From the IMG/VR virus record IMGVR_UViG_3300025652_000254, positions 1 to 34,118 of that record: a stretch of 34,118 bases of DNA; one strand, written 5' to 3'. Positions 12,139 to 30,356 of this stretch are shown piece after piece. Positions within the stretch are counted from its first letter, which is position 1. Every line of letters starts with the position of its first letter. The position numbers and the translations under genes are program-made. Source of the DNA: a virus. Its lineage: Duplodnaviria; Caudoviricetes. The notes under the pieces are model-generated. The model was not told the DNA's origin. It ran no database searches and was given only the letters and a program-made list of their open reading frames with translations.

Positions 12139-12229
12139 TGATAAGGTCGTCCGGTCTCCTGCTGAAAGGTCTTATCGCCTTCCTACCCCCTTACCGTAAC
12201 CACCCCTTCTTGCGGTAAGGGGGTTTTTT
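12139..12229 (+). ncRNA. Candidate small RNA with exposed anti-Shine-Dalgarno loop
   Basis: Stem GATAAGGTC/GGTCTTATC with CCGGTCTCCT in the loop, a CCTTCCT linker, then an intrinsic terminator. Lies downstream of an extended -10. Confidence 0.45.
12185..12229 (+). terminator. Rho-independent terminator at the convergence of the two gene blocks
   Basis: 15-bp stem ACCCCCTTACCGTAA/TTGCGGTAAGGGGGT followed by a T-run. Confidence 0.88.
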
Positions 12230-15200
12230 ACAAGAACCCTTCACCCGAATCCACCGTACGCTTCATGTATGGCGATAGCGTTGTACCGTTGTGCATCTCC
12301 GCAGAACGGGTCTCGTGCCCACGTATTGACCTATCAATAGTGTCACCTGTTATACGTTTCTGGCGATCTCGGCGCACGGCACTGGACTTGTTGAACTCTC
12401 GCATAGATCGCCGTGCATCACGCATACCTTCTCTGTCACCGAATCTCTTGGCAACGTAGTAACGTCTCAGCAGGTCACGGCGTTTAGCACTCGCAGCTAT
12501 GTCTAGGCGTTTAGCTGTAGATGTCTCGTCCGCTTGTCTGGTGTAATCGACGGGCGGAAACCCTAGTAGCTGCGTAGCCAAATCACCGGCTGTGAGATCA
12601 TCGTAGATAGGATCACCGCGCCGAGTCAGAATGCCCTCATCCCTCGGGTACCTGATAACAGCTTTATAAGCATTACGTACAGCGCCCGGCATTAGGTCTT
12701 CTATACCACGCTCTATCTCGCCTTCACGTAGTTTGTCTATGCCATCTCTACCTCGTGAGTAGATGCTCCATGCAGGGCCACCAAACAGGTGAGCAATCTC
12801 TTCTTCTGGCGATGGATCACTGTTGAATCTGTCGGCTTCAAATAGCAGGTCGGTCAGCTTAACGCGCTGCGATACATCAACCCCAGTTATTTCAGACAGA
12901 GCGCCCTTGAATAGCACTTCACTGTCTAGGTACTGCCGTAGCATGGTGTCGGTGTCTTCTTCGTAGTCTTCTCTAAACATGTCAATAAGCATGGAGACTG
13001 CACCGTACAACGGTAGACCCTGTACCCCAGCGAAGAACAGAGCAGATAAATGTACACCGGCAAGCTGTTTCAGAGCCTCATTACGTAGCTCTCTGCTCTT
13101 AGCGTCATTGCCCGGAAAAAAGTTCTCTATAGCTTGTCTACCAGACTTAAACATCGTGTAGTACATCTGTATGCCGTACGCTTTATACATCAGCGCAATA
13201 CGACCTAAACTCTCACGGGCGTACCGTGGGCCAGTTTCTAGTGTGGCACCACCGTTGATTAGCTGCGTCTCACGTACAGCTTCTTCTGCGGCTTTCTTCT
13301 TGTCACCATCAAACTTCTTTAGTGCGAGTTTATACGCTGCCACCATCGTAACTTGACGATTCATTACTTCTGCTTCATGGAACATAAGAGCCGAAGCGTT
13401 TGTCACCGCGTCCATCTTAGACATCTTACGCCCCGCCTGACTCGTGCTGAGTGTGTCGGCAATGAACGACGAGTTAAGCTGCCCCCGCCTAGAAGCAAGC
13501 TCCATCAACGGTAGAAGGTCTTTCAATTCCTTTGTTTGCGCTGCATCGAGGTCTAGGTCTTTACGTACTTCGTAAGTGACTCGGCCATCTTTGTCGCGGG
13601 AGAACGTATAGTAGTTATCCAGCGATGGTAATGCCTTGTCTTTGAGGGCTTCTCTCGCTGCGTTGAGGTCACCTTTACGTAGCGCTTCTCTTACAGACCG
13701 TGGCGTTCTTGCGTCCCCGACTAAAGTAGCTATGTCCTTGTTCATTGGAGAACCCATAAACAACTTAGTAGCACCGCTTAGAGCGGTTCGTGTGGCTCCG
13801 AACCCATACTTACCTGCCAGCATCGGGTATGCGAACAACGGTATCTGCGACAAGTTTACCAGCGCAGACGAGGCGTTGAAGCCGATAGTCCACATGAATG
13901 CCATACGGTTTGCGTTCTTAGCGAAACTGTCCAGTGGCGGATTGACGGCAAATCTAGCGCGGTCTTTTACCTCTTCGATTTCTGGGCTGTTCGCATCTGC
14001 CATTTTAGGGTTGGCTTCAAGCATCTCTTGTACGGCGTTGTCGATTAGCCGTGAGTTCTTAATGCGCTCTACCTGCCGTGCCAGATCAAAAGCCTTCGTA
14101 CGTGCCGCTTCCACAGCATCTACATCATAACCTTCAGTGCCCTTACGTCGAAGCAGTGACTTAGCGAAAGAAGACTCTGGCAGGTACTCAATAAACAAAC
14201 GTGTTATCTGTTCCTGAACCTCTGGGTCTACTTTGTTCACCTTCATAATGCCCAGTATGCTGGAGACAAAAGAACCAGAGGGCGCGTCCTCGTAGGAGGC
14301 TTTGTCACTAGGGCTGAACGTCGATACTCCGTAACCTTCTGCTTCGTAGGCTTCCGCTGCCCTGAACCGTTCCGCAGCGTTCTCGTATGCAAACACGGCA
14401 GAGTCCGCGCCTTCCTTGGGGTTCTTCACAGACAGGAAGTACGTGCCGGTACGAGTCAGCGGGAAGTATGGCTCCAGCTTAGTCGCCTCTAACATCTTAG
14501 CGTATAGACCGTTCTTGAGGTTGGTCTTCGCTTGTTCTGCTATGGGCAGTCCGTCAATACGATTTTGCAGCGTGTCATTAAGTTGGTCGTACTGATCTTT
14601 ATATAGCTTACGCAAAGCGGCGTAGTTCTTCCTACCCTCGGCACCAACCATCTTGCTGTTGTAGACCGCCCGTAGTTCTTTGTAGCGGTCTATTTTTAGC
14701 TGCTTAGTGCCGTCTACGGGCTGGTTGCCGTACCGTTTTTGTGCTTGCTGTGGCGTTAGCTCTGGATCTACTTGGTCAACGGTACTGTCGTAGATCAAGT
14801 TATTCCACGCCTTAATCGTTTCTCCAGACTGTTTAGCAGCCCACTCTCGTATAGGTTGTAGGTTGTTTCTGACCGCTTGCTCTGCGGTAGTTAGGCCACC
14901 ACGTTGGTTTTCTATAGCAGCGAAAACCTTATTAACACCGACTACACCTGCCCTTTCAAGCTCTACTTCGACGGCGTTGTTAGGTAAGAGACCAAGTATT
15001 TTGCGTTTTAGTCCGGTGTTTTTCTGCCCTGCTGTGAGTGCACCGTACTCGCCAACTATTCTTTCTTTTGCACGCTCTATCGGCCCTTTAGGTAGGGCGT
15101 CCTTGAGTCCTTCCTCTACTCTACGTACGCCAGCAGGGTCGGTCATAGATGCTAAGAGAGGAGCACCACGGTGCTTGGCGGCAGGTGCCAGTATGTCTTC

Positions 15201-18017
15201 AATTAACTGTTGGGCTTCACGCTGTGCAGTACCACGTTCTTTGCCCAGCCCGAGGAAGTTAGATACCACGCGGATAAATTCTTGCCAGACACTAAGCGGC
15301 CTACCGTCTGGGTTGATTCGAGCTAGCTCACCTTGGAAGGTGGGGTTAGTAAAGGCTTCAGCGACAAACTCTGCTACGTTCTTAGACCCATAAGAGTTAC
15401 GTAGGTACTCTTTGCTAGCCTCATGCAGCTTTATCAGCTTCTTAGTAGTCGGGTGTGACGGGTTCTTCAGAGTGCTAATCGTTGCAGCGTGCGCCATCTC
15501 GTGCAGTAGGACATACACATCTGTGTAGTCTTTATTCAGTACGATTGTGTTGTCTGCGGTTATGAACCGTCCGTCAACCTGTTTACCGTCTACTGTACCC
15601 AACTGGCTTGGGGGCACGGTCATTATCTTGGTGTCACCAGTGAGTTTAGCCAGACGGCCAGCTACTCGCTTGATGAACTTATCGTCTGACTTGTTAGATA
15701 GCTCTAGTAAGGCTCGACGTAGTTCGTTGTTACGTACCGCACGTTTTACAGTGTCAGGCAGTGAAGCATCCAACACCTCGGTGTAGTCTCTTGGAGGTGC
15801 GTTGAGGACTTGTTCGGATGCGACACGCATAGCGTCTGCTTTACTGAGACCTTCTTCTTTTACGAGCCTGTCTCTTTCTGCACGACGTTCAGCTAAAAGA
15901 CTTTGCTTGTCGGCAGTTTTTTCCTCTGGGGCACGTAGATCTACGTCCGCCGTAGGCTCTTCTACAGTAGGTTCTGCCGGGGCGGGTGTAGGTTCCTTCG
16001 TCAAAACCTCTTTTACGGTAGCTGGTGTGGCTGCGGCAGTGGCGGACATAGCCCGCTCTGCACGGCGTTGGGCGTCCACAGTCTCTTGAGGTATGACTTG
16101 CGTATCTACATCGGCAAGCTGTTCGTTGGCTTTTATACCTTCTTCAGTAACTTTCTGTAGCTTCTTCTCAGCACGAGCCAACTTACGTTGGTTAGCCTGC
16201 GTTGGTTTTACTGTTGCAGCTTCTTCGGCTTTAGCTACTTCAGTTCGGGCTGCGTTAGCCTTGGCTACTGCCGAAGTAACCTTTCGGGCTAGTGCACCAC
16301 GCTGTTTTCTCGTTCCAGAAACAGGTCGTCCAACGCCTCTTCCAGCATCTCCCACTGGTTCTCCGACAAGTGCAGCAGGTTCCACGGTATCCGCACGTCT
16401 TGTAGGGACTCCCACGCCTCGTAGATCAGCTTCATCGCCTGTTCTACTTCTTGCTGCGACAGGTTCTCTTTTGCGCGGGGTAGGTAGATCACGTTGCTCA
16501 CTAGGTACTCCTTCTAGCAATCGGGTAACGCCACGTCGAACCTTTTGAGATTTTAGACGGTTAGCTTCGTTAGTTAGCTCAACCCGGACTTCTGGGTCAT
16601 CTAAGTCTTTACCTATAACACGTCTGCGTATAGCAGCATTCGGCGCAAACCCAGCGGTAGTGAGGTCTTCTTCTGTGACAGGACGCGATTCGGGTGTTGG
16701 TTCTGCTTCTGGCGCTACTGCGGCTCCTTCTGCTACAGCAAGTTCAGTCGGAAATAGGTCAGGCTGTTCTCGTTGAGCAATCTCAGCACGTTCTCTACCT
16801 GTCCGCGCTTCGTCAGATACTGGCTCTTCAGTGATCTGTTGTTCTCTATCACGTAAGTTGGTTCGGTCTAAGGCTTCTTGTCTACCTAACACATCGCCTT
16901 CAGGCGTTACAGCTAACGTCTCACCAGCAATAGTTTCACCTTCTGGTGCAGGTAGACCTCGCAACTGTGGCCCAACACGTTCTGGCTCTAGCCCCGGCAG
17001 TGATATTTGGTCAGGGCTTACTTCGGCTGTACGTTCTTCCTCAAACAGCCTGTCTCGTTCTTCCTGATCTATGTCGTCTATGACTTCATCTATCTCAGGA
17101 GTACGCTCCTCTGCGTCGTCAAACAGTTCAAGTTGCCCTTCGGCTTCAGCTTCTTCAACAGCATCACCAATGGTCTTACCGGCTCTGCGTGGGGCGAACA
17201 GGTCAACAAGACCCTGTAAAATAGCACCGGCTCCAGCGCCTAATGCAGCTTCTTCTGCGGTACCGCCAAACGTCTCAGCAGCAGCGTTGTATTCTTGCTC
17301 GTTAAGATTTTGCAGTATGTTGGATGCAGCTTCCTGTGCACCCTCAAACCCACCTGTCACACCCGCGCTGTAGATACGTTCGCCAATGGTTTCGACCTTC
17401 TCAGGCGGTATCTTGTCAACTAGCTTGTTTAGCGTAGGTAGATCAGCGAACTTAACTACTTTTGCAACGGGGAGTATGTCTAGCAAACCGATTACTGTGC
17501 CCCGTACGGTGGCTTCACCACGTTTTTGCTCTGTAGTATCAGCGGCACGAGCACGCTCACTCGCCTCACCAGCACCGGCAGCACCGGCAGCTAACGCACC
17601 AAGACCCAAAGCCGCAGCACCGGGGGCACCAGCTATACCAGCGGCAACAGGTATAGAAGCAAGGCCAGCAACGGAACCAAGCGCGGAGCTTAGTTTGTAG
17701 GTAATAGATTCTGAGTCACCGCCTTCGGGACGGAAAGACTCCGCAATAGACTGAATACGCTCGCGTGCAGCTAGTTCGCTTTCTTCTTCCAGTGGCGCAG
17801 CGAGACCGAGTGCAGCCATCTCACCTACACCGACAACACCCGCACCGAATCCAGAGGTAATGTCCTCGAATATGCCGGTTTCTCGTGGTGCGCTGGTAGG
17901 GAGAGGGGTAGTACGCCCTACTAAAACACCCCTTAGCGCGTCTACAGCTTCTGTATCCCCAGCAGCTAGAGCGTTGCGGTACGCCCGATAAACTTTCTCT
18001 CTTGGTACTACTGGCAT
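12228..18017 (-). CDS. Large polyvalent internal virion/ejection protein with zincin-like metallopeptidase motif and PLxRFG/LPD-like C-terminal region
   Basis: 1929 aa. Gly/Ala hydrophobic N-terminal segments, LLHEMAH followed by EFVAEAF, YFPLTRTG. Last gene of the structural block. Confidence 0.75.
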   Translation of the reverse strand: MPVVPREKVYRAYRNALAAGDTEAVDALRGVLVGRTTPLPTSAPRETGIFEDITSGFGAGVVGVGEMAALGLAAPLEEESELAARERIQSIAESFRPEGGDSESITYKLSSALGSVAGLASIPVAAGIAGAPGAAALGLGALAAGAAGAGEASERARAADTTEQKRGEATVRGTVIGLLDILPVAKVVKFADLPTLNKLVDKIPPEKVETIGERIYSAGVTGGFEGAQEAASNILQNLNEQEYNAAAETFGGTAEEAALGAGAGAILQGLVDLFAPRRAGKTIGDAVEEAEAEGQLELFDDAEERTPEIDEVIDDIDQEERDRLFEEERTAEVSPDQISLPGLEPERVGPQLRGLPAPEGETIAGETLAVTPEGDVLGRQEALDRTNLRDREQQITEEPVSDEARTGRERAEIAQREQPDLFPTELAVAEGAAVAPEAEPTPESRPVTEEDLTTAGFAPNAAIRRRVIGKDLDDPEVRVELTNEANRLKSQKVRRGVTRLLEGVPSEQRDLPTPRKREPVAARSRTGDEADLRGVGVPTRRADTVEPAALVGEPVGDAGRGVGRPVSGTRKQRGALARKVTSAVAKANAARTEVAKAEEAATVKPTQANQRKLARAEKKLQKVTEEGIKANEQLADVDTQVIPQETVDAQRRAERAMSATAAATPATVKEVLTKEPTPAPAEPTVEEPTADVDLRAPEEKTADKQSLLAERRAERDRLVKEEGLSKADAMRVASEQVLNAPPRDYTEVLDASLPDTVKRAVRNNELRRALLELSNKSDDKFIKRVAGRLAKLTGDTKIMTVPPSQLGTVDGKQVDGRFITADNTIVLNKDYTDVYVLLHEMAHAATISTLKNPSHPTTKKLIKLHEASKEYLRNSYGSKNVAEFVAEAFTNPTFQGELARINPDGRPLSVWQEFIRVVSNFLGLGKERGTAQREAQQLIEDILAPAAKHRGAPLLASMTDPAGVRRVEEGLKDALPKGPIERAKERIVGEYGALTAGQKNTGLKRKILGLLPNNAVEVELERAGVVGVNKVFAAIENQRGGLTTAEQAVRNNLQPIREWAAKQSGETIKAWNNLIYDSTVDQVDPELTPQQAQKRYGNQPVDGTKQLKIDRYKELRAVYNSKMVGAEGRKNYAALRKLYKDQYDQLNDTLQNRIDGLPIAEQAKTNLKNGLYAKMLEATKLEPYFPLTRTGTYFLSVKNPKEGADSAVFAYENAAERFRAAEAYEAEGYGVSTFSPSDKASYEDAPSGSFVSSILGIMKVNKVDPEVQEQITRLFIEYLPESSFAKSLLRRKGTEGYDVDAVEAARTKAFDLARQVERIKNSRLIDNAVQEMLEANPKMADANSPEIEEVKDRARFAVNPPLDSFAKNANRMAFMWTIGFNASSALVNLSQIPLFAYPMLAGKYGFGATRTALSGATKLFMGSPMNKDIATLVGDARTPRSVREALRKGDLNAAREALKDKALPSLDNYYTFSRDKDGRVTYEVRKDLDLDAAQTKELKDLLPLMELASRRGQLNSSFIADTLSTSQAGRKMSKMDAVTNASALMFHEAEVMNRQVTMVAAYKLALKKFDGDKKKAAEEAVRETQLINGGATLETGPRYARESLGRIALMYKAYGIQMYYTMFKSGRQAIENFFPGNDAKSRELRNEALKQLAGVHLSALFFAGVQGLPLYGAVSMLIDMFREDYEEDTDTMLRQYLDSEVLFKGALSEITGVDVSQRVKLTDLLFEADRFNSDPSPEEEIAHLFGGPAWSIYSRGRDGIDKLREGEIERGIEDLMPGAVRNAYKAVIRYPRDEGILTRRGDPIYDDLTAGDLATQLLGFPPVDYTRQADETSTAKRLDIAASAKRRDLLRRYYVAKRFGDREGMRDARRSMREFNKSSAVRRDRQKRITGDTIDRSIRGHETRSAEMHNGTTLSPYMKRTVDSGEGFL
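16289..16501 (-). CDS. Nested same-strand, alternative-frame 70-aa acidic protein
   Basis: SD AGAAGGAG (16508-16515) 6 nt before a GTG. Amphipathic helical sequence. The host frame here is low-complexity R/G/P/A. Confidence 0.6.
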   Translation of the reverse strand: MSNVIYLPRAKENLSQQEVEQAMKLIYEAWESLQDVRIPWNLLHLSENQWEMLEEALDDLFLERENSVVH

Positions 18018-20712: not shown

Positions 20713-21381
20713 TTATGCAGGTAGCATCTTCTGAGGTTTGATTTGCCTACCCTGTTTCGGGTTACCCGTGCGTTCTTTACGTACTCTGGTCATCATTTGG
20801 TGTAGCTGATTTGCACCGGCATCGGAGTTACCGTTACCTAGATGGCTCACCACATCCGCAGGTATGACAAACTCCCCATCGCTAAGGCGTGCTTCTTGTC
20901 TACCATCAATAGTAGCTGGAATCTTATCAGCCATACCATCCGTAATACCACCTAAGTAGTACCCTTTGTTCATGCCAATAGCACCGCCAGCAGCCATTCC
21001 AGCTAGCCCTTGCGCTTGTGTTTGGGCTTTTTGCCGTGCTTGCTCTACTGTCATAGACTGACGTTCAGGACGGTCAGCGTACTGAACATCACTGAAGTAT
21101 CTTCTACCAGCAGATCCGGGCCTACGGTTAGGGTCTGCCTGCATAGGTACGCGCTCTCGCACGGCCTCATACTCTGGAATGCTTCCTTGGTAGCCAACTA
21201 CAGGCGTTTTAGTGTCCATGATTCCAGTCTTAGTGGCTAAAGCTCCAAGCCCTGCGGTTCCAATAAGACTACCAACATCAGAACGAAAAAAATCACCAAC
21301 GCCCCCTAAAAACGTGTTTTCATTTCCAGTATCGGTAAAAGCACCGGACACGCCAGATGTAAGATCAGTCCACCAGCTCAT
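20713..21381 (-). CDS. Conserved virion-associated protein
   Basis: 222 aa. C-terminal DGMADKIPA...ARLSDGEFVIPADVVSHLGNG motif is recognisable from environmental podovirus proteins. Confidence 0.7.
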   Translation of the reverse strand: MSWWTDLTSGVSGAFTDTGNENTFLGGVGDFFRSDVGSLIGTAGLGALATKTGIMDTKTPVVGYQGSIPEYEAVRERVPMQADPNRRPGSAGRRYFSDVQYADRPERQSMTVEQARQKAQTQAQGLAGMAAGGAIGMNKGYYLGGITDGMADKIPATIDGRQEARLSDGEFVIPADVVSHLGNGNSDAGANQLHQMMTRVRKERTGNPKQGRQIKPQKMLPA

Positions 21382-24300
21382 TAGCTTTCTCCAATAATCC
21401 GTAATAGTTCGTCGTTTGCATCAATTATACCTCCACGTTTACGTCCAAACGGCAGTCTAGGCCGTGTAGTCGGTTGAACTGGCCCTCGTTCGATTGTGCC
21501 GTACGGTGTAGGGAACATAGACGCTCTTTGTTGCGGCCCGAATATACTACCAAAATCATACAGATAGTCGATCTGTGCCAAGGGAGATTGATCTACTGTA
21601 ACTTGTTGTCCTGTTATGTCTGCGGCACCCATGATCTGGCCTAACAGATCCCTACGGCGAGCCTGCTCCCCTTCTTGTGCGATTTGAGTCTGTATTGCCT
21701 GCTGCGACTGCATTTGCTGCTGCATCTGCTGCTGTTGCTGTAGCTCTTGCTGCTGTTGCAGTTCCTGTTGCGTCTGAATCTGTTGCTGTTGTTGCTGCTC
21801 CATCTGACGCTGTAGCGCTTGTTGCGTCTGCTGCTGTGCGGCGTATAGGCCCGTAGGAGCGAACATACTGTCAAGGTCAAACAGTACATCTTGCCCTGTT
21901 CTAGCTTGTTGCAGGAGGTCTAGGTCAGCTTGGTCTACTACACCGTCACCTGTTACGTCATAGGCTAGCTGTTCTTGTGTGTACGTAGCAGGGTCGTTGA
22001 TCGCTTCTTGCTGTGCGATAAGGTCAGCAACAAAGTCAATATCCGCATCAGTCACCTCAGAAGCAGGCTTACCTACAAGCTCCGCTACCGCTTCAATTTC
22101 GGCAGTCAGTGCACCCTCAGCGCCGCTAATTGCACGCAACAAATCAGCTTCAGTTTCACCGATTGCAGCGCGTAGGGACTCTTCAGACTCTCCGATACGT
22201 GTAAGTAAAGTTTCTTCGGTAACGCCAAGCTCGCTAGCAAGGTCGGATATAGAGGTACGCAGTGCCGTATCTCTGTCGGCACCTGCTTGTTCAGCTTCGT
22301 CAATCTTCGTCAGAAGGGTACGTGTTGTGGCGTCAACATCCCCAGACACATCTTCGATAGCTTTAGCTAATGCTTCATCCCGAGAAAGCCCTGCTGCCTC
22401 GTACTCAGCCATCTTGTCGAGGACGTTTGTTTCAAGGCCAGCTACTTCTCCAGATAGGCTTGTCTGTAAATCAGCTAACTCGCCCTTGAAGTCTTCTCGT
22501 ACAGAAAGCTCAGAGTCCGCTATGGCATCTAGTAAGGTTTCTTTTGTTGTACCTAGATCACTAGCAAGCTCGTCAACAGTCTTGGCTAGTGCTTCATCAC
22601 GGGACATCCCCGCTGCTTCGTATTCTGCTACTTTATTAAGTAGGGTCGTCTCAAGGTTAGCTACATCCCCAGACACGTCTTCGATAGCTTTAGTTAGTGC
22701 TTCATCACGAGACAACCCTGCTGCTTCGTATTCCGCTATCTTATCAAGGAGGTTTGTTTCAAGGCTGGCTACGTCACCAGATACATCCGCAACAGCTCTG
22801 GATAGTGCTTCATCACGCGACAACCCTGCTGCTTCGTATTCAGCTACTTTGTTAAGTAGATTTGTCTCAAGGCCAGCTACGTCTCCAGATACATCTTCGA
22901 TAGCTAAAGCTAATGCCTCATCACGGGAAAGCCCCGCTGCTTCGTATTCGGCTATCTTCTCAAGAAGGTTTGTTTCGAGGTTAGCTACATCCCCAGATAA
23001 GCTCGCCTGTAAGTTAGCTAACTCGGTTCCAAAATCTTCTCGTATGGCAAGTTCAGAACCCGCTATCCTGTCTAACAGGCTCTGCTCTGTTGTACCTAAC
23101 TCTGCGGATACATCTGCAACGGACTGCGATAGTGCCTCATCCCGAGAAAGTCCCGCCGCCTCGTACCCCGCTATCTTCTCAAGAAGGTTTGCTTCAAGGT
23201 TAGCTACGTCTCCAGCTAGACTTGCCTGTAAATTGTCTATCTCATCCTTGAACTCTTCCCGTATGGCAGTGTCGGAATTCGCTATTCTGTCTAACAGGTT
23301 CTGCTCTGTTGTACCTAGTTCTCCAGATACATCTGCAATAGACCGCGCTAACGCTTCATCGCGGGAAAGTCCTGCACCCTCATACTCGGCCATCTTCTCA
23401 AGGAGGCTTGTCTCAAGGTTAGATACATCTTCAGATAGAGTTGTTCGTAAGGCAGATAACTCGTTTGTGAAGTCTTCCCGTATGGCGAGATCAGAGTCCG
23501 TTATCCTATCTAGCAGGTTCTGTTCTGTTGTACCTAACTCTCCAGATACATCTTCGATGGCCTTAGCTAGTGCTTCATCACGAGAGAGTCCTGCGTTCTC
23601 ATACTCAGCCATCTTTCCAAGGAGGTTCGCCTCGATGTTGGACATACCTTCGGATAGGTCTGCCTGCAAACTTTCTAGTTCACCCTTGAAGTCTTCTCGT
23701 ATGGCAAGATCGGAGTCCGTTATTCTGTCTAACAGGTTTTGCTCTGTTGTACCTAGTTCTCCAGATACGTCCTCAATAGCTTTGGCTAACGCTTCATCAC
23801 GAGACAGCCCTGCGTTCTCGTACTCGGCCATTTTCCCAAGGAGGTTCGCCTCAAGGTTGGACATTTCCTCAGATAGATTTGTCTTTAGGGTAGTCAACTC
23901 ATTTCTGAAGTCTTCCCGTACGGCAAGTGCAGAGTCCTCTACAACGTCTAACAGGTTTTGCTCTGTTGTGCCTAGCTCTCCCGACACAGCTTCGATAGCT
24001 TGGGCCAGTGCTTCGTCCCGAGAGAGTCCTGCTGCTTCGTATTCAGCTACTCTATCAAGGATGCTTGCCTCAAGATTCGACATATCTCCGAGTAAACTTG
24101 CCTTTAGGCCCGTCAGCTCACCCTTGAAGTCTTCTCGTATAGCAAGTTCGGAATTTGCTATGGTGATTAACAGGTTTTCTTTTGTTGTACCGAGATCACC
24201 GGCAAGGTCGTCAATAGCCTGCGATAATGCCTCATCCCGAGAAAGCCCTGCATTTTCATACTCATTTACTTTATCGAGTATGTTTGCCTCAAGATTCGAC

Positions 24301-27300
24301 ATGTCCTCGGACAAACTTGTCTCTAGGGTAGTTAGCTCATCCCTGAAGTCTTCTCGTATGGCAAGCTCAGAGTCCGCTATAGTGTCCAGCAGGTTTTCTT
24401 CTGTTGTACCTAGCTCTGCGGATACATCTGCAATGGACTGTGCTAACGCTTCATCACGAGAAAGCCCTGTTGCCTCATACTCTGCTATCTTCTCAAGAAG
24501 GTTTGTCTCAAGGCTGGACATATCCCCAACCAAACTTGCCTTCAGATCGACTAACTCGTTCCTGAAATCCTCTCGTATGGTAAGTTCAGAGTTCGCTATA
24601 ACGTCTATTAGGGATTCTTTTGTCGTACCTAGATCACCAGCAAGCTCATCAATAGCCTGCGCTAACGCTTCATCACGAGAAAGCCCTGCTGCTTCGTATT
24701 CAGCCACTTTAGCGAGAATGCTTGTCTCAAGGTTCGACATATCCCCAAGCAAACTTGTCTTCAGATTAGCTAATTCGCCTTTGAAGTCTTCTCGTATGGT
24801 GAGGTTAGAGTTTGTTATAACGTCTAACAGCTCTGCCTTTGTTGTACCTAGCTCTGTGGACACCTCTTCGATGGCCCTAGCCAGTGCTTCATCCCGAGAA
24901 AGCCCTTCTGCTTGGTACTGATCCATCTTGCCAAGGAAACTTGTTTCGAGGGTAAGCATGTCTTGAGACACATCTTCAATAGCTTTGGCTAGTGCTTCAT
25001 CCCGAGAAAGCCCTTCCGCTTGGTACTGAGCCATCTTGCCAAGGATACTTGTCTCAAGATTAGCCATATCCTCAGATACAATCGTCTCTAGGACAGCTAG
25101 TTCGTCCCTAAAGTCTGTTCGTAAGGAAGACTCAGAGTCCCCTATGATGTCTAGCAGAGTTTGTGTTGTTGTGCCCAATTGACCTGCAAGCTCGCTAATA
25201 GCCTGCGCCAATGCTTCATCACGAGTCTTACCCTCTCCTTGTAGCTGATCTATACGGTCATTAAGCTGCTGCTCAGACTCTGTTAGCTGGTCGGACAACG
25301 CAGCTATTTGATCGTCTACAGGATCGACTACAGGATCGACTACAGGATCGACTACAGGATCGACTACAGGATCGACTACAGGATCGACTACAGGATCGAC
25401 TACAGGATCGACTACAGGATCAACTACAGGATCGACTACAGGATCGACTACAGGATCGTCTACAGGATCTGGCGTTGGGTTAAGTAAGCTACCGTCATCG
25501 TCAATGCCAGAATCCGTACGGGCAGTAGAGTCTGGGTTGATTGATTCAATCTGGTCTAGCAGACTGTCTAATTGCAAAGGCGTTGTGTTTGGATTACCAA
25601 GCAGCCCGTCTAGCTGAAGCATTAACATGTTTTCAGAGTATTCAGTCACATTGTCTGAAGCGTACTTTTCTGACTTACCTACAAACTCAGCCAAGTCTTC
25701 TTGTGTAGGTGTATACCCAATGTCAGTAAAGTAATCCCTAGCTTCTCGGTTAGTGACATACATCGGGTCGAAAACATCAGAACGTAAGCTGTTAAGCGCA
25801 GCCTCGGCTTGCCCAGACTCGGTTTGGCGTACGTACTGAGCGACCTGTTCGTTAGTTAATGTCAGACCTTCAAGCGCTGCGACATCTATGGCTTCTTGTG
25901 CGTCGATATAGCTGCGGTCTACTAAGTCTGCAACGCTAGCAGCTAACCTATCTTCAGCGATGTCGCCGGTAAAACCAAGTATGTCCGCTTCAGTGGGGGC
26001 GTAATCAGGGTTTTCAATTTGGAACGTATCTTTGGATTCGGTATATGTGGTGTAATCCGCGTCAAACGCATCATTTAATAGGGTGGTTTGTAGACCGCCG
26101 TATTCATCACTGGCTATACCAAATTCTGCTAAGGCCGCTTTAGCCTGTGCATCATTAATCAGCCCCCTCTTAGCGCCTTCTATTGTGGCATTTATACCTG
26201 CATGAGTAGAGCGTACAGCCCCAGCCAAAGCATCTCGTGCGCCATCAACACCTAACAAAGCCGATGTAACTGCGGTGCCGCTAATAAGACCTCCCGCACC
26301 GGCAGAAGCTATTGCAGCGCCCCAGTCGCGGTTTGGATCTGTAGAAGTTAGAGTAGCCTCTAACGCTGTCCCAGTTAGTGCTTCTTCTCCGTATTCAAAA
26401 ATCCCTTCTTTACCCGCAGTTTTTGCAGCCCGCAGCCCTGTAACGAGAGCGTCTCCAGCATTGACACGATCACCTAGCTCTTTAGCCAAAGCCTCCATTT
26501 TTGGGTTTAAGGTGGTTTTTTTACCCCCGAGTAAGAGTTTGTCTAGTGCCTCGCCACCCAAACCAAAAGATGCAAGCGACAGCACCGTAGCGGTACCACC
26601 GCTAATCATTGCAGCATCATGGGCAAACTTGTGGATCTCATCCATTTGCCCCGGAAATAGACCATTCTGGTCAACTAAATTGCCGATAGGTATACCGGCG
26701 GATTGCATAAGAGCTACTGTGGCTTCGTTGTTTTCTCGTAACTGCTTTAGTTTCGCATCAAACGCCTCGTCATAAGCCCCGTCAGCGCTACCCCCAAAAG
26801 CCTCGCTAGCGTCGGTAGCAGCGGCGGTAGTCAAACCAGCCCTCGTACCAATCTGAGTTGCTGCAACTTTAGCAGAAGCGGATACCGCGCCTTTCCCTGC
26901 AATTTTTGCTGCGGATAACGCAGCGCCCTTCGCTATTACTCCTGCACCACCACCAACAAGTAAAGGGCCGATTTCTTGGAAAAGCTCTACCCCTGCAAGT
27001 TCAGCCAGCATGATAGTTGGGTCGTCAGCAAGTGCGTCTGTCCATGCTTGAGTAGTGCCCCAGAACCCTTCTGCTTCTTGTATTGTCCCCCACATGTCTT
27101 TAACGCGGGCTTGGTATCCTTCGGTATTCGCAGAATCGCCAAGTTCAAGAAGTTTATTTACGTATTGACCAAGTTCTAAGTCATCTGGGCGTGCCCCAAA
27201 TAGGTAAGTAAGCCCCAACATGGCTTTGGTAAAACCCGCACCCGCACGGATCATGTTTGCAGTGGTGTTAATTGCACCCGCTTCCAAATTAGCGGCTAGC

Positions 27301-30300
27301 TCACGGGCTTTTGTCTCGTCCATGCCAGAAGCAAGCATCGCGGGTAAGATGTTTTCAGCCACATTATTAGCGGCTTCTACAGCGTCTTCAGCTATTTCGT
27401 AAACGCTAATGCCGTCAGTCGCGCTTTCTACGCCGTTCTCTTTGACGTATTCAGCGCTTTCTTTATTGCCTGTAGCAGAGTCGGCACGACCTAACTTGTT
27501 TGTGTACGCTTCTGGGTCACTGTTACGTAACTTTGCAAGTTCATCGAGATCCAACGCAGATACAGCATCTACAAGTCTGCCAGTAAGCTCCACACCAGAC
27601 TCTTCTAGCAACCTTAAATGGCTATAACCTTCACCACGCAGCTCTACATAGGCGTTTATAGCATCTAAGCGGAAATCTGCGGGAGAGGCGTTACCGCCAG
27701 CTCTGCGAGCCATAGACTCAGCTATTTGATCTATTGCTAACCCAATAGACGCTGCTCTAGCTTCTGGAGTCACTCCGGGCAAAAATTGTTCCGTGGTGTA
27801 TTTCGTACCTTCAATATCTAATTCAATTACGCCATCAGCAACAAAAGTATCTGCTACAGAGACATTGGGGTCTGCAATTCGAGAATCTGCTTCAAAATTA
27901 AGCGGTGTAGTGGGGGCTTCTTCTCCAAAAGACTGTCCAAGTAAAGTGTTAAGTGTGCTTCGTGGGTCTAACCTGTCCGCTAAAGAAACCCCCGCCGCGT
28001 CAAGATATTTTTGGAACTGCGGGGCATCTATAATTTCATTAGCAAGATCAAGTTTTTGTTCTTGCGGTATGTCTCTAGTGGTACGAAAAATATTAGCCCA
28101 CAAAGAAGGTTTTTCCTTAAACTTAAGTAACAACCCATTGACATCTTCAAATATAGGAAGTCCATCTTCATCGACCAACCCACGGGGTTTGTAGCCTCCT
28201 AATACTTCAGACATTTCTGCGGCTCTTGCCGCTTCCCTATTAAAGGCAGCAATACCGTACTTACGTATATATTCATCTTCGCCTAGAAGATCAGAAAACT
28301 CCTCACGTTCTAAGTCTTGTTGTGCTCTAGTTAGCCCTGCTATACCTTCAGAACCTTCAAACTGATAATCAATACCCCCCGCTGCGGCAGTTATATCCGC
28401 TTGACTTGGTGAGAACAGACCACCTATAGCTTCACCAGTGCCGCGTAACACCTCGCCCATTTTCTCGAAGAAGGTGTCTTTGTTTATGCCTGCTATACCG
28501 CCACCAGACAGGACGTACTGCCCTAAGCCTATAGATAAAGCATCTTCAAGCTCGATACCTTGCGTTAAGGCTACTTGGGTTCTGACCAAACCATTCACTA
28601 ACAAGTCTTGGTTTACACCTGCTCTGTCAAGCAGTTCGGGGGTAAGTCCTACCTTGTTGAGAGCAGTGGTGGTTAGATCAGGGCCAAAAGCTGCAAGCAC
28701 CCCCGCACCAAGATTACCGCTTACAGCACCAGAACCTACTTGGGCTGCTGCGTATAAAAGTTTTGCCGTGTTGTATTCTGTTAGCGCTTGTGCGGCTAAG
28801 GATGCTGCGCCGGGGCCAGCAGCGGCAAGAGTTTCATAAGCTGCTTTAGCATTACCCAGCTTTTGTGCGGCGGTTGATCCGACAAACGACAGCCCTGCAC
28901 TTTTGAGTACGTCTTCAAAATCTCCACCAGATATAACGGTTTGCCCTGCGGATACTGCTGCGGTAGCAGCGGCTAACTGTGTAGCACTATACCCAGCAGC
29001 GCCAGCAGCACCAGCAGCAGTACCACCACCAGCAGTACCCGCAGCGGCCGGAGCACCGAACATTCCTGTTTTTACAAGCATTTGCGGGGCGTAAAACGCA
29101 ATAGCTACAGAAGCTATGATCTTAGCGGCGTTTTGAAAGTCCCTGTCTTTAACTTCTTTTGTACGTATTTCACCATAAGTAAACGGGTCGTATATATAAG
29201 TAGAGCCGTCTTTTGTCTGTCGTAGGGGAGTAACGTCATACTTACCGTACAACGCTTGTATCATAGGATCTTCGCTATACGCGGCTTGCAATGCGTCTTG
29301 GTAATTCAATCCGCGAGTTATCTGTAGATAAGGTATCTGCTCTTGAAGAATGGGTTCAATAAACGAATGAAACTCAGAAAGTTGCGCTTGCGAAGAGTTT
29401 GTATGGGTTTGTAAATTGCCACCAAACCTTCCTAGCTGCTGCGCTACAGGAGAAAAATCTATTCCATAATACCCACCGAGAACGGTAGCAACTTGTTCTG
29501 GCGAATCTGTGATGGACAATACGGTGTAAGCGTTTTTTGCTTCGTTCTCGTCACGAGACTTGTTTTTTTGTAGTACATCAGTGAGGTACGCAGGGGCACT
29601 TGTAGAGTTTATGTATTCATCTGGACTAATAGTGAATTTTAAAGTACCGCCATAGGTACCGCCCTCACCCCCGACAATATCCGCATAGTCATTGATGTTC
29701 GCGGCTTTAAGCGCTTCGTCGTACGCCCTGTCATACCAGTCGTCTACTTCATCTACGTCGTCTATTGCGTAGTAGTCAGCGCCTTGCGCTAGTTTAGCTT
29801 TATACGCTGCACGGAAATCTTGAGCGGCTTTGGGGCTTACGGCTAGAGGTTGACTACGGCGTTCGGCAAGTGCGTCCGCTTCAGCTTTCGCTTTTGCTTC
29901 TTCCTCAGCTTTGCGTGCGGCTTCCGCTTCAGCTTCCTTCCTCTTACGTTCTTCCTCTTCAAACAGCTTTTGAAACCTTAGTCTGTCTTCTTCCTCTTGG
30001 AGTTTTATGGCTTCAGCAGCTTTTCGGAGACGTTCGGCTGCTTTTCTCTTACGTTCCGCTTCGGCTTCAGCTTCTCTTTTCGCTTTTGCTTCCGCTTCGG
30101 CTTTTGCCTTGGCTTCAGCTTCTGCTTTAGCTTTTTCTGCTGCTTCGGCTTCTGCTTTAGCTTTTGCTTCAGCTTCTTTCTTCGCTTTCGCAGCCGCTTC
30201 TGCCTTTGCCTTAGCTTCAGCTTCCGCCTTAGCTTTTGCTGCTGCTTTTGCCTTGGCTTCAGCTTCCCTTCTCTTACGTTCTTTCTCTTGTTCCCTAAGA

Positions 30301-30356
30301 AAATTTGCTATGTAGTCATCGGAAAAATTAGTATCGCCAGCGCCACCTTCACTCAT
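21381..30356 (-). CDS. Giant (2991 aa) repeat-rich putative internal virion protein
   Basis: Uninterrupted ORF coupled by TAATG overlaps at both ends. Contains an A/E/K helix, Gly/Ala hydrophobic segments, DPVV repeats, 36/73-aa repeats, an EF-hand-like loop and a polyQ tract. Confidence 0.85.
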   Translation of the reverse strand: MSEGGAGDTNFSDDYIANFLREQEKERKRREAEAKAKAAAKAKAEAEAKAKAEAAAKAKKEAEAKAKAEAEAAEKAKAEAEAKAKAEAEAKAKREAEAEAERKRKAAERLRKAAEAIKLQEEEDRLRFQKLFEEEERKRKEAEAEAARKAEEEAKAKAEADALAERRSQPLAVSPKAAQDFRAAYKAKLAQGADYYAIDDVDEVDDWYDRAYDEALKAANINDYADIVGGEGGTYGGTLKFTISPDEYINSTSAPAYLTDVLQKNKSRDENEAKNAYTVLSITDSPEQVATVLGGYYGIDFSPVAQQLGRFGGNLQTHTNSSQAQLSEFHSFIEPILQEQIPYLQITRGLNYQDALQAAYSEDPMIQALYGKYDVTPLRQTKDGSTYIYDPFTYGEIRTKEVKDRDFQNAAKIIASVAIAFYAPQMLVKTGMFGAPAAAGTAGGGTAAGAAGAAGYSATQLAAATAAVSAGQTVISGGDFEDVLKSAGLSFVGSTAAQKLGNAKAAYETLAAAGPGAASLAAQALTEYNTAKLLYAAAQVGSGAVSGNLGAGVLAAFGPDLTTTALNKVGLTPELLDRAGVNQDLLVNGLVRTQVALTQGIELEDALSIGLGQYVLSGGGIAGINKDTFFEKMGEVLRGTGEAIGGLFSPSQADITAAAGGIDYQFEGSEGIAGLTRAQQDLEREEFSDLLGEDEYIRKYGIAAFNREAARAAEMSEVLGGYKPRGLVDEDGLPIFEDVNGLLLKFKEKPSLWANIFRTTRDIPQEQKLDLANEIIDAPQFQKYLDAAGVSLADRLDPRSTLNTLLGQSFGEEAPTTPLNFEADSRIADPNVSVADTFVADGVIELDIEGTKYTTEQFLPGVTPEARAASIGLAIDQIAESMARRAGGNASPADFRLDAINAYVELRGEGYSHLRLLEESGVELTGRLVDAVSALDLDELAKLRNSDPEAYTNKLGRADSATGNKESAEYVKENGVESATDGISVYEIAEDAVEAANNVAENILPAMLASGMDETKARELAANLEAGAINTTANMIRAGAGFTKAMLGLTYLFGARPDDLELGQYVNKLLELGDSANTEGYQARVKDMWGTIQEAEGFWGTTQAWTDALADDPTIMLAELAGVELFQEIGPLLVGGGAGVIAKGAALSAAKIAGKGAVSASAKVAATQIGTRAGLTTAAATDASEAFGGSADGAYDEAFDAKLKQLRENNEATVALMQSAGIPIGNLVDQNGLFPGQMDEIHKFAHDAAMISGGTATVLSLASFGLGGEALDKLLLGGKKTTLNPKMEALAKELGDRVNAGDALVTGLRAAKTAGKEGIFEYGEEALTGTALEATLTSTDPNRDWGAAIASAGAGGLISGTAVTSALLGVDGARDALAGAVRSTHAGINATIEGAKRGLINDAQAKAALAEFGIASDEYGGLQTTLLNDAFDADYTTYTESKDTFQIENPDYAPTEADILGFTGDIAEDRLAASVADLVDRSYIDAQEAIDVAALEGLTLTNEQVAQYVRQTESGQAEAALNSLRSDVFDPMYVTNREARDYFTDIGYTPTQEDLAEFVGKSEKYASDNVTEYSENMLMLQLDGLLGNPNTTPLQLDSLLDQIESINPDSTARTDSGIDDDGSLLNPTPDPVDDPVVDPVVDPVVDPVVDPVVDPVVDPVVDPVVDPVVDPVVDPVVDPVDDQIAALSDQLTESEQQLNDRIDQLQGEGKTRDEALAQAISELAGQLGTTTQTLLDIIGDSESSLRTDFRDELAVLETIVSEDMANLETSILGKMAQYQAEGLSRDEALAKAIEDVSQDMLTLETSFLGKMDQYQAEGLSRDEALARAIEEVSTELGTTKAELLDVITNSNLTIREDFKGELANLKTSLLGDMSNLETSILAKVAEYEAAGLSRDEALAQAIDELAGDLGTTKESLIDVIANSELTIREDFRNELVDLKASLVGDMSSLETNLLEKIAEYEATGLSRDEALAQSIADVSAELGTTEENLLDTIADSELAIREDFRDELTTLETSLSEDMSNLEANILDKVNEYENAGLSRDEALSQAIDDLAGDLGTTKENLLITIANSELAIREDFKGELTGLKASLLGDMSNLEASILDRVAEYEAAGLSRDEALAQAIEAVSGELGTTEQNLLDVVEDSALAVREDFRNELTTLKTNLSEEMSNLEANLLGKMAEYENAGLSRDEALAKAIEDVSGELGTTEQNLLDRITDSDLAIREDFKGELESLQADLSEGMSNIEANLLGKMAEYENAGLSRDEALAKAIEDVSGELGTTEQNLLDRITDSDLAIREDFTNELSALRTTLSEDVSNLETSLLEKMAEYEGAGLSRDEALARSIADVSGELGTTEQNLLDRIANSDTAIREEFKDEIDNLQASLAGDVANLEANLLEKIAGYEAAGLSRDEALSQSVADVSAELGTTEQSLLDRIAGSELAIREDFGTELANLQASLSGDVANLETNLLEKIAEYEAAGLSRDEALALAIEDVSGDVAGLETNLLNKVAEYEAAGLSRDEALSRAVADVSGDVASLETNLLDKIAEYEAAGLSRDEALTKAIEDVSGDVANLETTLLNKVAEYEAAGMSRDEALAKTVDELASDLGTTKETLLDAIADSELSVREDFKGELADLQTSLSGEVAGLETNVLDKMAEYEAAGLSRDEALAKAIEDVSGDVDATTRTLLTKIDEAEQAGADRDTALRTSISDLASELGVTEETLLTRIGESEESLRAAIGETEADLLRAISGAEGALTAEIEAVAELVGKPASEVTDADIDFVADLIAQQEAINDPATYTQEQLAYDVTGDGVVDQADLDLLQQARTGQDVLFDLDSMFAPTGLYAAQQQTQQALQRQMEQQQQQQIQTQQELQQQQELQQQQQMQQQMQSQQAIQTQIAQEGEQARRRDLLGQIMGAADITGQQVTVDQSPLAQIDYLYDFGSIFGPQQRASMFPTPYGTIERGPVQPTTRPRLPFGRKRGGIIDANDELLRIIGES
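21695..21837 (-). repeat. Glutamine-rich low-complexity tract
   Basis: CAG/CAA-rich stretch encoding QQQTQQ...QQQQQQ...QQQQQMQQQMQSQQ. Confidence 0.8.
22260..25250 (-). repeat. Degenerate coding tandem repeats with 219-bp and 108-bp periods
   Basis: 16 RDEAL anchors (mostly GLSRDEAL) at 22376, 22595, 22703, 22811, 22919, 23138, 23357, 23576, 23795, 24014, 24233, 24452, 24671, 24890, 24998 and 25217, plus a degenerate RDTAL near 22268. Confidence 0.92.
25309..25470. repeat. 12-bp tandem repeat (GGATCGACTACA) x ~13, encoding (DPVV)n
   Basis: 11 core units at 25321-25452 (one with a single substitution), flanked by GATCGTCTACA variants. Confidence 0.97.
29860..30290 (-). repeat. Ala/Glu/Lys low-complexity repeat (KAKAEAEA)n
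   Basis: Repeated AEAKAKAE-type units at the N-terminus of the giant protein. Confidence 0.85.

Follow-up and report, generated by a model that had tools for sequence, protein, structure and literature searches.

A conserved small gene, probably translated from its own start, nested in the +1 frame of a giant polyvalent virion protein gene of uncultured aquatic phages

The subject of this work is a stretch of Caudoviricetes DNA of 34,118 nucleotides (nt) (IMG/VR record IMGVR_UViG_3300025652_000254, positions 1 to 34,118; hereafter the window), a phage fragment with an estimated completeness of 55%. Its minus strand carries a 1929-codon open reading frame (ORF) for a giant polyvalent virion protein and, wholly inside this host ORF, on the same strand and in the +1 frame relative to it, a second ORF of 70 codons (16289-16501). 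Comparison with relatives indicates that the latter is a conserved nested gene under purifying selection, likely translated from its own Shine-Dalgarno (SD) sequence and GTG start as a separate protein, a reading to which we assign a probability of about 0.85. The initial annotation of the window had pointed to a GTG-started, same-strand frame located 6 nt after AGAAGGAG inside the 1929-residue protein, and all of these features were verified in the window sequence; the ORF translates as V/MSNVIYLPRAKENLSQQEVEQAMKLIYEAWESLQDVRIPWNLLHLSENQWEMLEEALDDLFLERENSVVH. A same-strand ORF of 70 codons in an alternative frame is by itself not rare, a neighbouring gene of 2991 codons containing examples of 82 codons (21641..21889) and 65 codons (22106..22303). 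Judged from the sequence comparisons described below, the excess over chance comes from the comparative signal and not from the length of the ORF.

The relatives were viral contigs, which after pooling amounted to 63 loci with 52 distinct DNA sequences of the nested ORF. It was present in 62 of the 63 loci, always at an offset of +1 inside a giant ORF. The nested protein, used to scan the viral contigs, hit 25 loci (the window's own record among them), and in all 25 the nested frame was intact over 70-71 codons, the giant frame was open and the third frame was broken across the overlap. An independent scan with the N-terminal 280 residues of the host protein, which is unbiased as to the presence of the nested gene, returned 23 loci; 20 of these carry the gene, one form being divergent and 74 residues long. 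Loci of three distant family members (27-38% identical to the window protein) showed the ORF at offset +1 in 30 of 31 cases, within spanning ORFs of up to 2629 codons, and the one locus without it stops short of the place where it would be expected.

The signals that delimit the gene were retained as well. Among the 52 distinct copies, 30 start with ATG and 22 with GTG, and each is preceded, 3-12 nt before the start, by an SD-like core of at least 4 nt (at least 5 nt in 41/52), cores of 7, 6, 5 and 4 nt being found in 4, 24, 13 and 11 copies, respectively. In each of the 51 complete copies the stop codon comes immediately after the final position of the profile, which is a conserved C-terminal His or Gln; the remaining copy is truncated at the end of its locus. 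Of 20 loci, 16 have an in-frame stop 1-5 codons upstream of the start, and in 6 of the 20 this stop abuts the ATG. The sequence flanking the start differs among clades in at least four ways, and the start signal has therefore been kept or rebuilt in different host-frame contexts. Frame, start and stop were retained down to about 30% protein identity. The initial annotation had proposed searching the homologues for stop codons within the frame or a missing SD sequence; start and SD-like core were kept in every one of the 52 copies, and the 51 complete ones were uninterrupted to their stop. In a divergent clade (L032:5457-5801, L033:5487-5855 and L046:989-1378), the open stretch of the nested frame is 115-130 codons long and includes an ATG further upstream (MLLVQNKIRF...), with a GTG and AGGAG still at the usual place.

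Evaluation of 17 unique overlap sequences yielded ratios of nonsynonymous to synonymous diversity (pN/pS) of 0.27 for the nested frame, 2.26 for the host frame and 0.76 for the third frame. Site entropy at positions 1, 2 and 3 of the nested codons was 0.62, 0.30 and 0.92, respectively, which is the pattern expected of a coding frame. When 12 complete host genes were divided into segments, the three segments covering the overlap had +1-frame pN/pS values of 0.37, 0.30 and 0.66, as compared with a minimum of 0.76 and a median of 1.08 among the other 52. The corresponding host-frame values were 1.17, 1.83 and 0.95 in the overlap and 0.38-0.81 elsewhere, and the synonymous diversity (pS) of the host frame fell to 0.28, 0.17 and 0.44 against 0.55-0.77 in the other 52 segments, a drop that was confined to the overlap. 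These values bear out the suggestion in the initial annotation that it is the other frame that is under selection, and the frame-specific test that had been proposed there detected purifying selection in the nested frame and not in the host frame. Overall, the proposal of a separately initiated, overprinted gene inside the giant protein gene appears strongly supported by conservation together with frame-specific selection.

The host frame across the nested ORF reads ...DLRGVGVPTRRADTVEPAALVGEPVGDAGRGVGRPVSG... and is rich in Gly, Arg, Val and Pro; its peptide is poorly conserved, and the earlier description of this span as a low-complexity linker held. Mean identity within the overlap was 46% for the host-frame peptide and 71% for the nested protein. 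Alignment gaps were absent from the overlap, and gap fractions in the surrounding linker reached 0.59. The host frame was nevertheless open in 17/17 unique sequences, in which the third frame contains 3-8 stops. When synonymous codons were resampled with the nested protein held fixed, the host frame stayed open in only 0.8-4.8% of trials (mean 2.1%); given that it is open in all of the natural sequences against about 2% by chance, the segment is dual-coding. As judged from these alignments, the nested protein is under purifying selection, and selection on the host linker takes the form of stop-avoidance. The codon-usage score per codon in the overlap was -4.11 for the +1 frame and -4.07 for the host frame, and elsewhere in the host gene the +1 frame scored -4.33 to -4.78, making the overlap uniquely high. 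Since the two frames are tied, codon usage does not tell which of them is the older.

On the basis of sequence and profile searches, the nested-frame proteins constitute a new protein family; the arrangement itself, a nested phage gene, is known, and it is the setting that is new. Among 5.8 billion proteins searched through a word index, seven relatives came up, of which six had been called as genes of 70-71 residues; a profile search of 1.84 billion representatives found 42 matches at E<=1e-3 (clusters at 50% identity). One match, P0017 (1705 residues), was rejected as spurious, being a repeat protein in which 15 profile positions are matched 17 times over; the remaining matches were mostly 57-89 residues long. 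Metagenomes were the sole source of all ten cluster representatives that were looked up, and another match, P0023, had no locus in the viral contigs. The family consensus is L-S/T-x-x-Q-V-E-x-A-F ... I-P-x-x-L-x-H-L ... W ... L ... E-x-E-x-S-x-L-H, and 36 of 40 fetched members end at the consensus His or Gln (...LH-type). Over 58 sequences, P39, L42 and W50 are invariant, E20, A22, L45 and L57 are each present in 57, and 52 sequences end in His, the other 6 in Gln. AlphaFold2 with the 58 diverse sequences gave a predicted local distance difference test score (pLDDT) of 85 and a predicted template-modelling score (pTM) of 0.67, with a helix at residues 16-32, a loop around Pro39/Leu42 and a second helix at residues 47-67. 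The nested product is thus confidently predicted to be a two-helix hairpin.

Searches for a recognized counterpart of this product gave no informative match. The window protein had nothing at or above cut-off in Pfam, PHROGs, NCBIfam or PADLOC, and neither did 34 family members in Pfam and PHROGs. Two Pfam candidates were rejected, namely DUF2922 (17.4 bits against a cut-off of 25.5, touched by only 1 of the 34 members) and Antitox_RHH (13.3 bits against 27.2). The family profile reached at best E 0.55 against PDB sequences. Foldseek with the pLDDT-85 model reached E 4.9 in PDB and 0.6 in BFVD, and VIA-align over 48,161 chains gave a best Z of 5.4, which is below the tool's meaningful level for helical models; its top matches were generic helical ones (KaiA C-terminal domain, homeodomains and FF domains). 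The ESM Atlas contained unnamed viral clusters only, at 0.90 and with low recognition.

The distribution of the gene among divergent host genes pointed to a mosaic history. The identities of nested and host proteins were decoupled, and nested identity exceeded host identity in 52 of 66 pairs (means of 71% and 47%); it follows that giant genes of quite different sequence exchange, by recombination, the linker block that contains the gene. In L015, L016, L018, L024 and L025, the host proteins are 30-31% identical to the window giant (12228-18017) and the nested proteins 71-77%, and the N-terminal domain of these hosts was not detected by BLASTP. This combination of low host identity and high nested identity shows that the giant gene has evolved as a mosaic. 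The DNA of L042 and L043 is about 98% identical until 17 nt before the nested ATG, at the edge of the SD sequence; given the position of this break, the linker behaves as a unit that can be swapped and whose left edge is sharply defined. Comparison of L042:5240-5400 with L043:5240-5480 showed that an unrelated EEARAA-type repeat replaces the nested gene in L042. No free-standing copy was found, and the linker over which the gene lies is disordered and rich in indels; overprinting of this linker is on these grounds the simplest origin, and the nested gene most likely arose in this way.

What the nested protein does is a separate question. Under the reading of a separately translated gene, free 30S subunits would start at the internal SD sequence on late mRNA of the giant gene, and the small protein would thereby be made together with the giant one; the gene would have been born by overprinting of the linker and later moved between divergent host genes through recombination of linker blocks. 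By analogy with phage P1, in which the loading of DarB depends on other Dar proteins, we tentatively propose that the product is an accessory partner made alongside the giant internal protein, as a holding or packaging helper; no other single mechanism seems likelier, though its chances are clearly below even. The strictly C-terminal His/Gln and the conserved Glu20 would be candidate contact residues. A more specific version is unlikely: a well-folded, deeply conserved "safety catch", born de novo in the linker, encoded in the giant protein's own mRNA and travelling as a cassette between divergent giant genes, might keep the giant inactive or loadable until packaging, for example by bringing its last residue (His/Gln) and Glu20 up to the metallopeptidase zinc site. 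The structure prediction for a complex of the nested protein with the host N-terminal domain and host residues 745-965 scored 0.00, a value that carries no weight either way.

Several observations weigh against a partnership with the giant protein. Three of 23 relatives (L036, L042 and L047) are without the nested gene, and L036 and L047 keep the HExxH domain all the same, their records being 24% and 47% complete. Every sufficiently long carrier host has an HExxH motif, and these two loci have it without the gene, in records that are fragmentary. A second copy elsewhere in the records of L036, L042 and L047 was not found; all three are fragments, and a copy may lie elsewhere in those genomes. 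The nested and host proteins also diverge independently of one another (77% against 93% in L008, 77% against 31% in L015). Decoupled identities and dispensability argue against a tightly co-evolving partner of variable host domains; they may be compatible with binding at some unchanging part of the giant protein, for example its zinc site. From the sequences, the data fit an accessory, exchangeable factor. None of the functions that the initial annotation had suggested (cognate inhibitor or chaperone, superinfection-exclusion factor, DNA mimic) gained support from the analysis. That of a cognate inhibitor or chaperone was weakened by the independent divergence (77% against 31%) and by the retention of HExxH in relatives without the gene. 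Net charge has a median of -7 and ranges from -15 to +7 over 58 members, so that strong negative charge is not conserved and a conserved role in DNA mimicry is unlikely; an antirestriction protein of the Ocr/ArdA type was rejected on the same ground, 5 of the 58 members being at 0 or above.

The same observations can be read in favour of a different target. In this alternative, which, taken over several unspecified targets together, we consider quite possible and not far short of an even chance, the nested gene is real and its product targets the host cell or some other part of the phage (as an accessory anti-defence, takeover or exclusion factor), being nested in the giant gene only through its birth there by overprinting and the difficulty of leaving. 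De novo viral proteins that arise by overprinting tend to be accessory, which is in keeping with this view, as are the dispensability of the gene in 3/23 relatives, its exchange as a block among distantly related host genes (in L042/L043 the break falls 17 nt upstream of the ATG), and the often far better conservation of the nested protein than of its host (77% against 31% for L002 and L015; means of 71% against 47%). The gene has, however, never been found outside the giant gene (62/62 carriers are nested, and 5/5 records have a single copy), late expression with a structural gene would be the wrong time for anti-defence unless the protein is packaged, and no match in PADLOC, Pfam or PHROGs points in this direction.

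The reading of a separately translated, conserved gene has its own weak points. The SD-like core is only 4 nt long in 11 of the 52 copies; an AlphaFold2 monomer from a shallow alignment (22 close sequences) was poor (pLDDT 58); and the nested family was detected in 0/5 of the nearest isolates, the positive control giving 5/5. In addition, two database gene calls, P0009 and P0048, join the host to the nested frame, as would be the case if the latter were entered from the former by programmed ribosomal frameshifting, giving a truncated N-terminal product with a helical C-terminus, in the manner of the tail chaperones G/GT. We consider this very unlikely. P0009 needs two indels within about 120 nt, and the second leads into the third frame, as sequence errors typically do; P0048 differs from L056 by the one-base deletion that it requires, and the frames are separate in the nearest loci, L056-L058. 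Both joined calls are probably errors, though they could be real variants. An in-frame stop directly before the ATG (6/20 loci) leaves no room for frameshift entry upstream of the start, and in the window a stop precedes the GTG by 5 codons. A G/GT-like extension was accordingly rejected as a candidate, as each of the 52 distinct copies has its own start and SD-like core and 16/20 loci have a stop 1-5 codons upstream of the start.

An RNA structure, a regulatory site or a packaging signal would likewise lower the synonymous variation of the host frame, and conservation could in principle reflect such a nucleic-acid element in place of a second protein. This is still less probable, since variation follows the phase of the nested codons (position 3 > 1 > 2), the frame together with its start and stop persists in family members sharing as little as about 30% protein identity, and co-variation within the family sufficed for a confident protein fold. 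The RNA around the nested start folded no better than shuffled sequences (z +1.06), and promoter-like or terminator-like sites were not found in 16000-17000. There is hardly any chance that the signal comes from the plus-strand ORF that overlaps the segment (16093..16548, 151 codons), which is open in 14/17 sequences but broken by stops in the other 3, does not fit the phase of variation and resembles other long antisense ORFs along the host gene, a general property of that frame; or from an assembly error with the host frame truly running through the nested one, as the same relation between the frames recurs in dozens of assemblies made independently in several studies.

Genes of similar architecture are known from other phages. 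In phage lambda, Rz1 is a small gene with its own start that lies wholly inside Rz in the +1 frame, both products being made; it encodes an outer-membrane lipoprotein with a lipobox, and the product of its host gene is its direct lysis partner. The present gene resembles Rz1 in being a small gene with its own start, fully inside a larger phage gene and in the +1 frame. It differs in that the 70-residue nested protein has no Cys, signal peptide or hydrophobic segment, and in that its host is an LPD39/DarB-like giant virion protein, with the holin and endolysin of the window about 16 kb away. An embedded, Rz1-like o-spanin was therefore rejected as a candidate: there is no Cys and no hydrophobic N-terminus, and the host gene is not an i-spanin. 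The phiX174 genes E in D and B in A, and 4.2, 19.2 and 19.3 of T7, are out-of-frame nested genes that are classically explained by overprinting; they occur in small or compact genomes and are mostly without deep family conservation. By comparison, it is here the nested frame that is structured and more constrained, lying over a disordered linker in a gene of about 6 kb, and the family persists across divergence to about 30% identity.

Type III secretion chaperones and colicin immunity proteins are small, mostly acidic helical proteins encoded beside the large delivered protein that they serve. The nested protein is likewise small, predicted to be helical and of median net charge -7, and it is encoded within a giant gene; unlike them, it shows no sequence or fold match and no co-divergence with host domains, and some relatives are without the gene. 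The DarB protein of phage P1 is a giant internal head protein that is co-ejected with DNA; the Dar proteins are described as internal, co-ejected and loaded in order, and DarB as needing others of them in order to be packaged and as being excluded when Hdf and DarA are deleted (PMC12810830). The system resembles the present one in that DarB works with small partners (Hdf, DarA, DdrA, DdrB and Ulx) and the C-terminal part of the host protein matches the PHROG "DarB-like antirestriction". It differs in that the P1 partners are separate genes with no detected similarity to the nested protein. Full-text searches of open-access papers and bioRxiv turned up none that deals with a gene nested in those of polyvalent, PLxRFG or DarB-like proteins.

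The carriers are, as far as sequences tell, a deep family of uncultured aquatic phages. Window DNA was detected, at half or more of the sampled words, in 14 runs, of which 4 are possibly the source sample; the runs listed belong to 13 studies of freshwater and marine metagenomes. The nearest isolates according to the 624-residue virion protein are only 30-38% identical (phage DSL-LC04, Synechococcus phage MinM2, Pelagibacter phages HTVC027P and HTVC023P, and Roseobacter phage CRP-901), and phage isolates gave no match by blastn of the region or tblastn of the protein. In a marine metatranscriptome (run X20), contigs of relatives span the segment; DNA carry-over is possible, and the contigs show no transcript ends. 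Among the differences listed for that run, 4 lie inside the nested ORF and 35 in the flank 15885-16284.

Because standard gene callers cannot report a same-strand nested gene, the family goes unannotated wherever the giant frame is called. It numbers 42 clusters at 50% identity and was encountered in over 60 viral contigs. The case is an unusually clean one of dual coding, with a structured protein over a disordered linker and measurable selection in both frames, which makes it of use for studying gene birth by overprinting and for benchmarking detectors of overlapping genes. If the nested protein serves the giant polyvalent/DarB-like protein, it would also help to explain how internal proteins of 2000 residues stay safe, load and eject.

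The features of the host gene and of the nested gene are collected in Table 1. Distant relatives of the host protein in isolates carry the annotation "PLxRFG protein", and from these family names the giant product is inferred to be an internal, ejected virion protein. The initial annotation had placed the nested gene just upstream of the metallopeptidase region; upstream is correct, and "just" is loose, given that the HEMAH motif lies about 260 host residues downstream.

Table 1. Features of the giant host gene and its nested gene in the window, with positions counted from the first nucleotide of the window.
Feature	Position	Strand	Remarks
Nested gene	16289..16501	minus	70 codons and TAG stop (16289-16291); predicted two-helix hairpin product
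Start codon GTG of nested gene	16499..16501	minus	Homologous position in relatives is GTG (22) or ATG (30)
SD-like AGAAGGAG	16508..16515	minus	6 nt 5' of GTG; in the host frame, part of L-E-G-V
TAG closing the nested frame upstream	16514..16516	minus	5 codons 5' of GTG
Dual-coding low-complexity linker, host codons 506-576	16290..16502	minus	Open frame kept, peptide not conserved
Host gene, polyvalent virion protein, 1929 codons	12228..18017	minus	LPD39 (Pfam), DarB-like antirestriction (PHROG), "PLxRFG protein" in isolates
Gly/Ala-rich conserved N-terminal host domain, residues 45-280	17178..17885	minus	Conservation among relatives
Conserved host motif, residues 445-505 (...RRRVIGKDLDDPEVR...RLLEGVP), directly upstream of nested gene	16503..16685	minus	Conservation 0.54-0.61
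HEMAH zinc-metallopeptidase motif, host residues 839-843	15489..15503	minus	Exactly one HExxH in each sufficiently long relative host
LPD39 domain, host residues 1000-1177	14487..15020	minus	Pfam E 6.1e-07, 29.7 bits, cut-off 27
C-terminal PLxRFG/DarB-like region, host residues 1161-1908	12294..14537	minus	phrog_11358 and phrog_10089, E about 2e-53

Other genes of the window encode a DNA polymerase, helicase, primase, exonuclease, Gp2.5-like single-stranded DNA-binding protein, holin, endolysin and virion structural protein. The second giant ORF (21381-30356, minus strand), which is the 2991-codon gene mentioned above, had only weak and short PHROG matches. The host protein of L053 (2449 residues) is homologous to that of the window and has the GKDLxDPxVR ... 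LEGVP motif just before the nested gene. An extra N-terminal segment in some homologous giants shifts the nested gene, to about host residue 899 in L053; in this locus the segment (L053:4303-5000, GFSDATYLDGKRIPTTGVGQT...) precedes the Gly/Ala-rich domain and is lysozyme-like, a call made by eye. Long plus-strand ORFs of 151-176 codons run antisense to the giant gene at 13636-14130, 14863-15393 and 16093-16548, and these look like a by-product of the codon pattern of the host frame.

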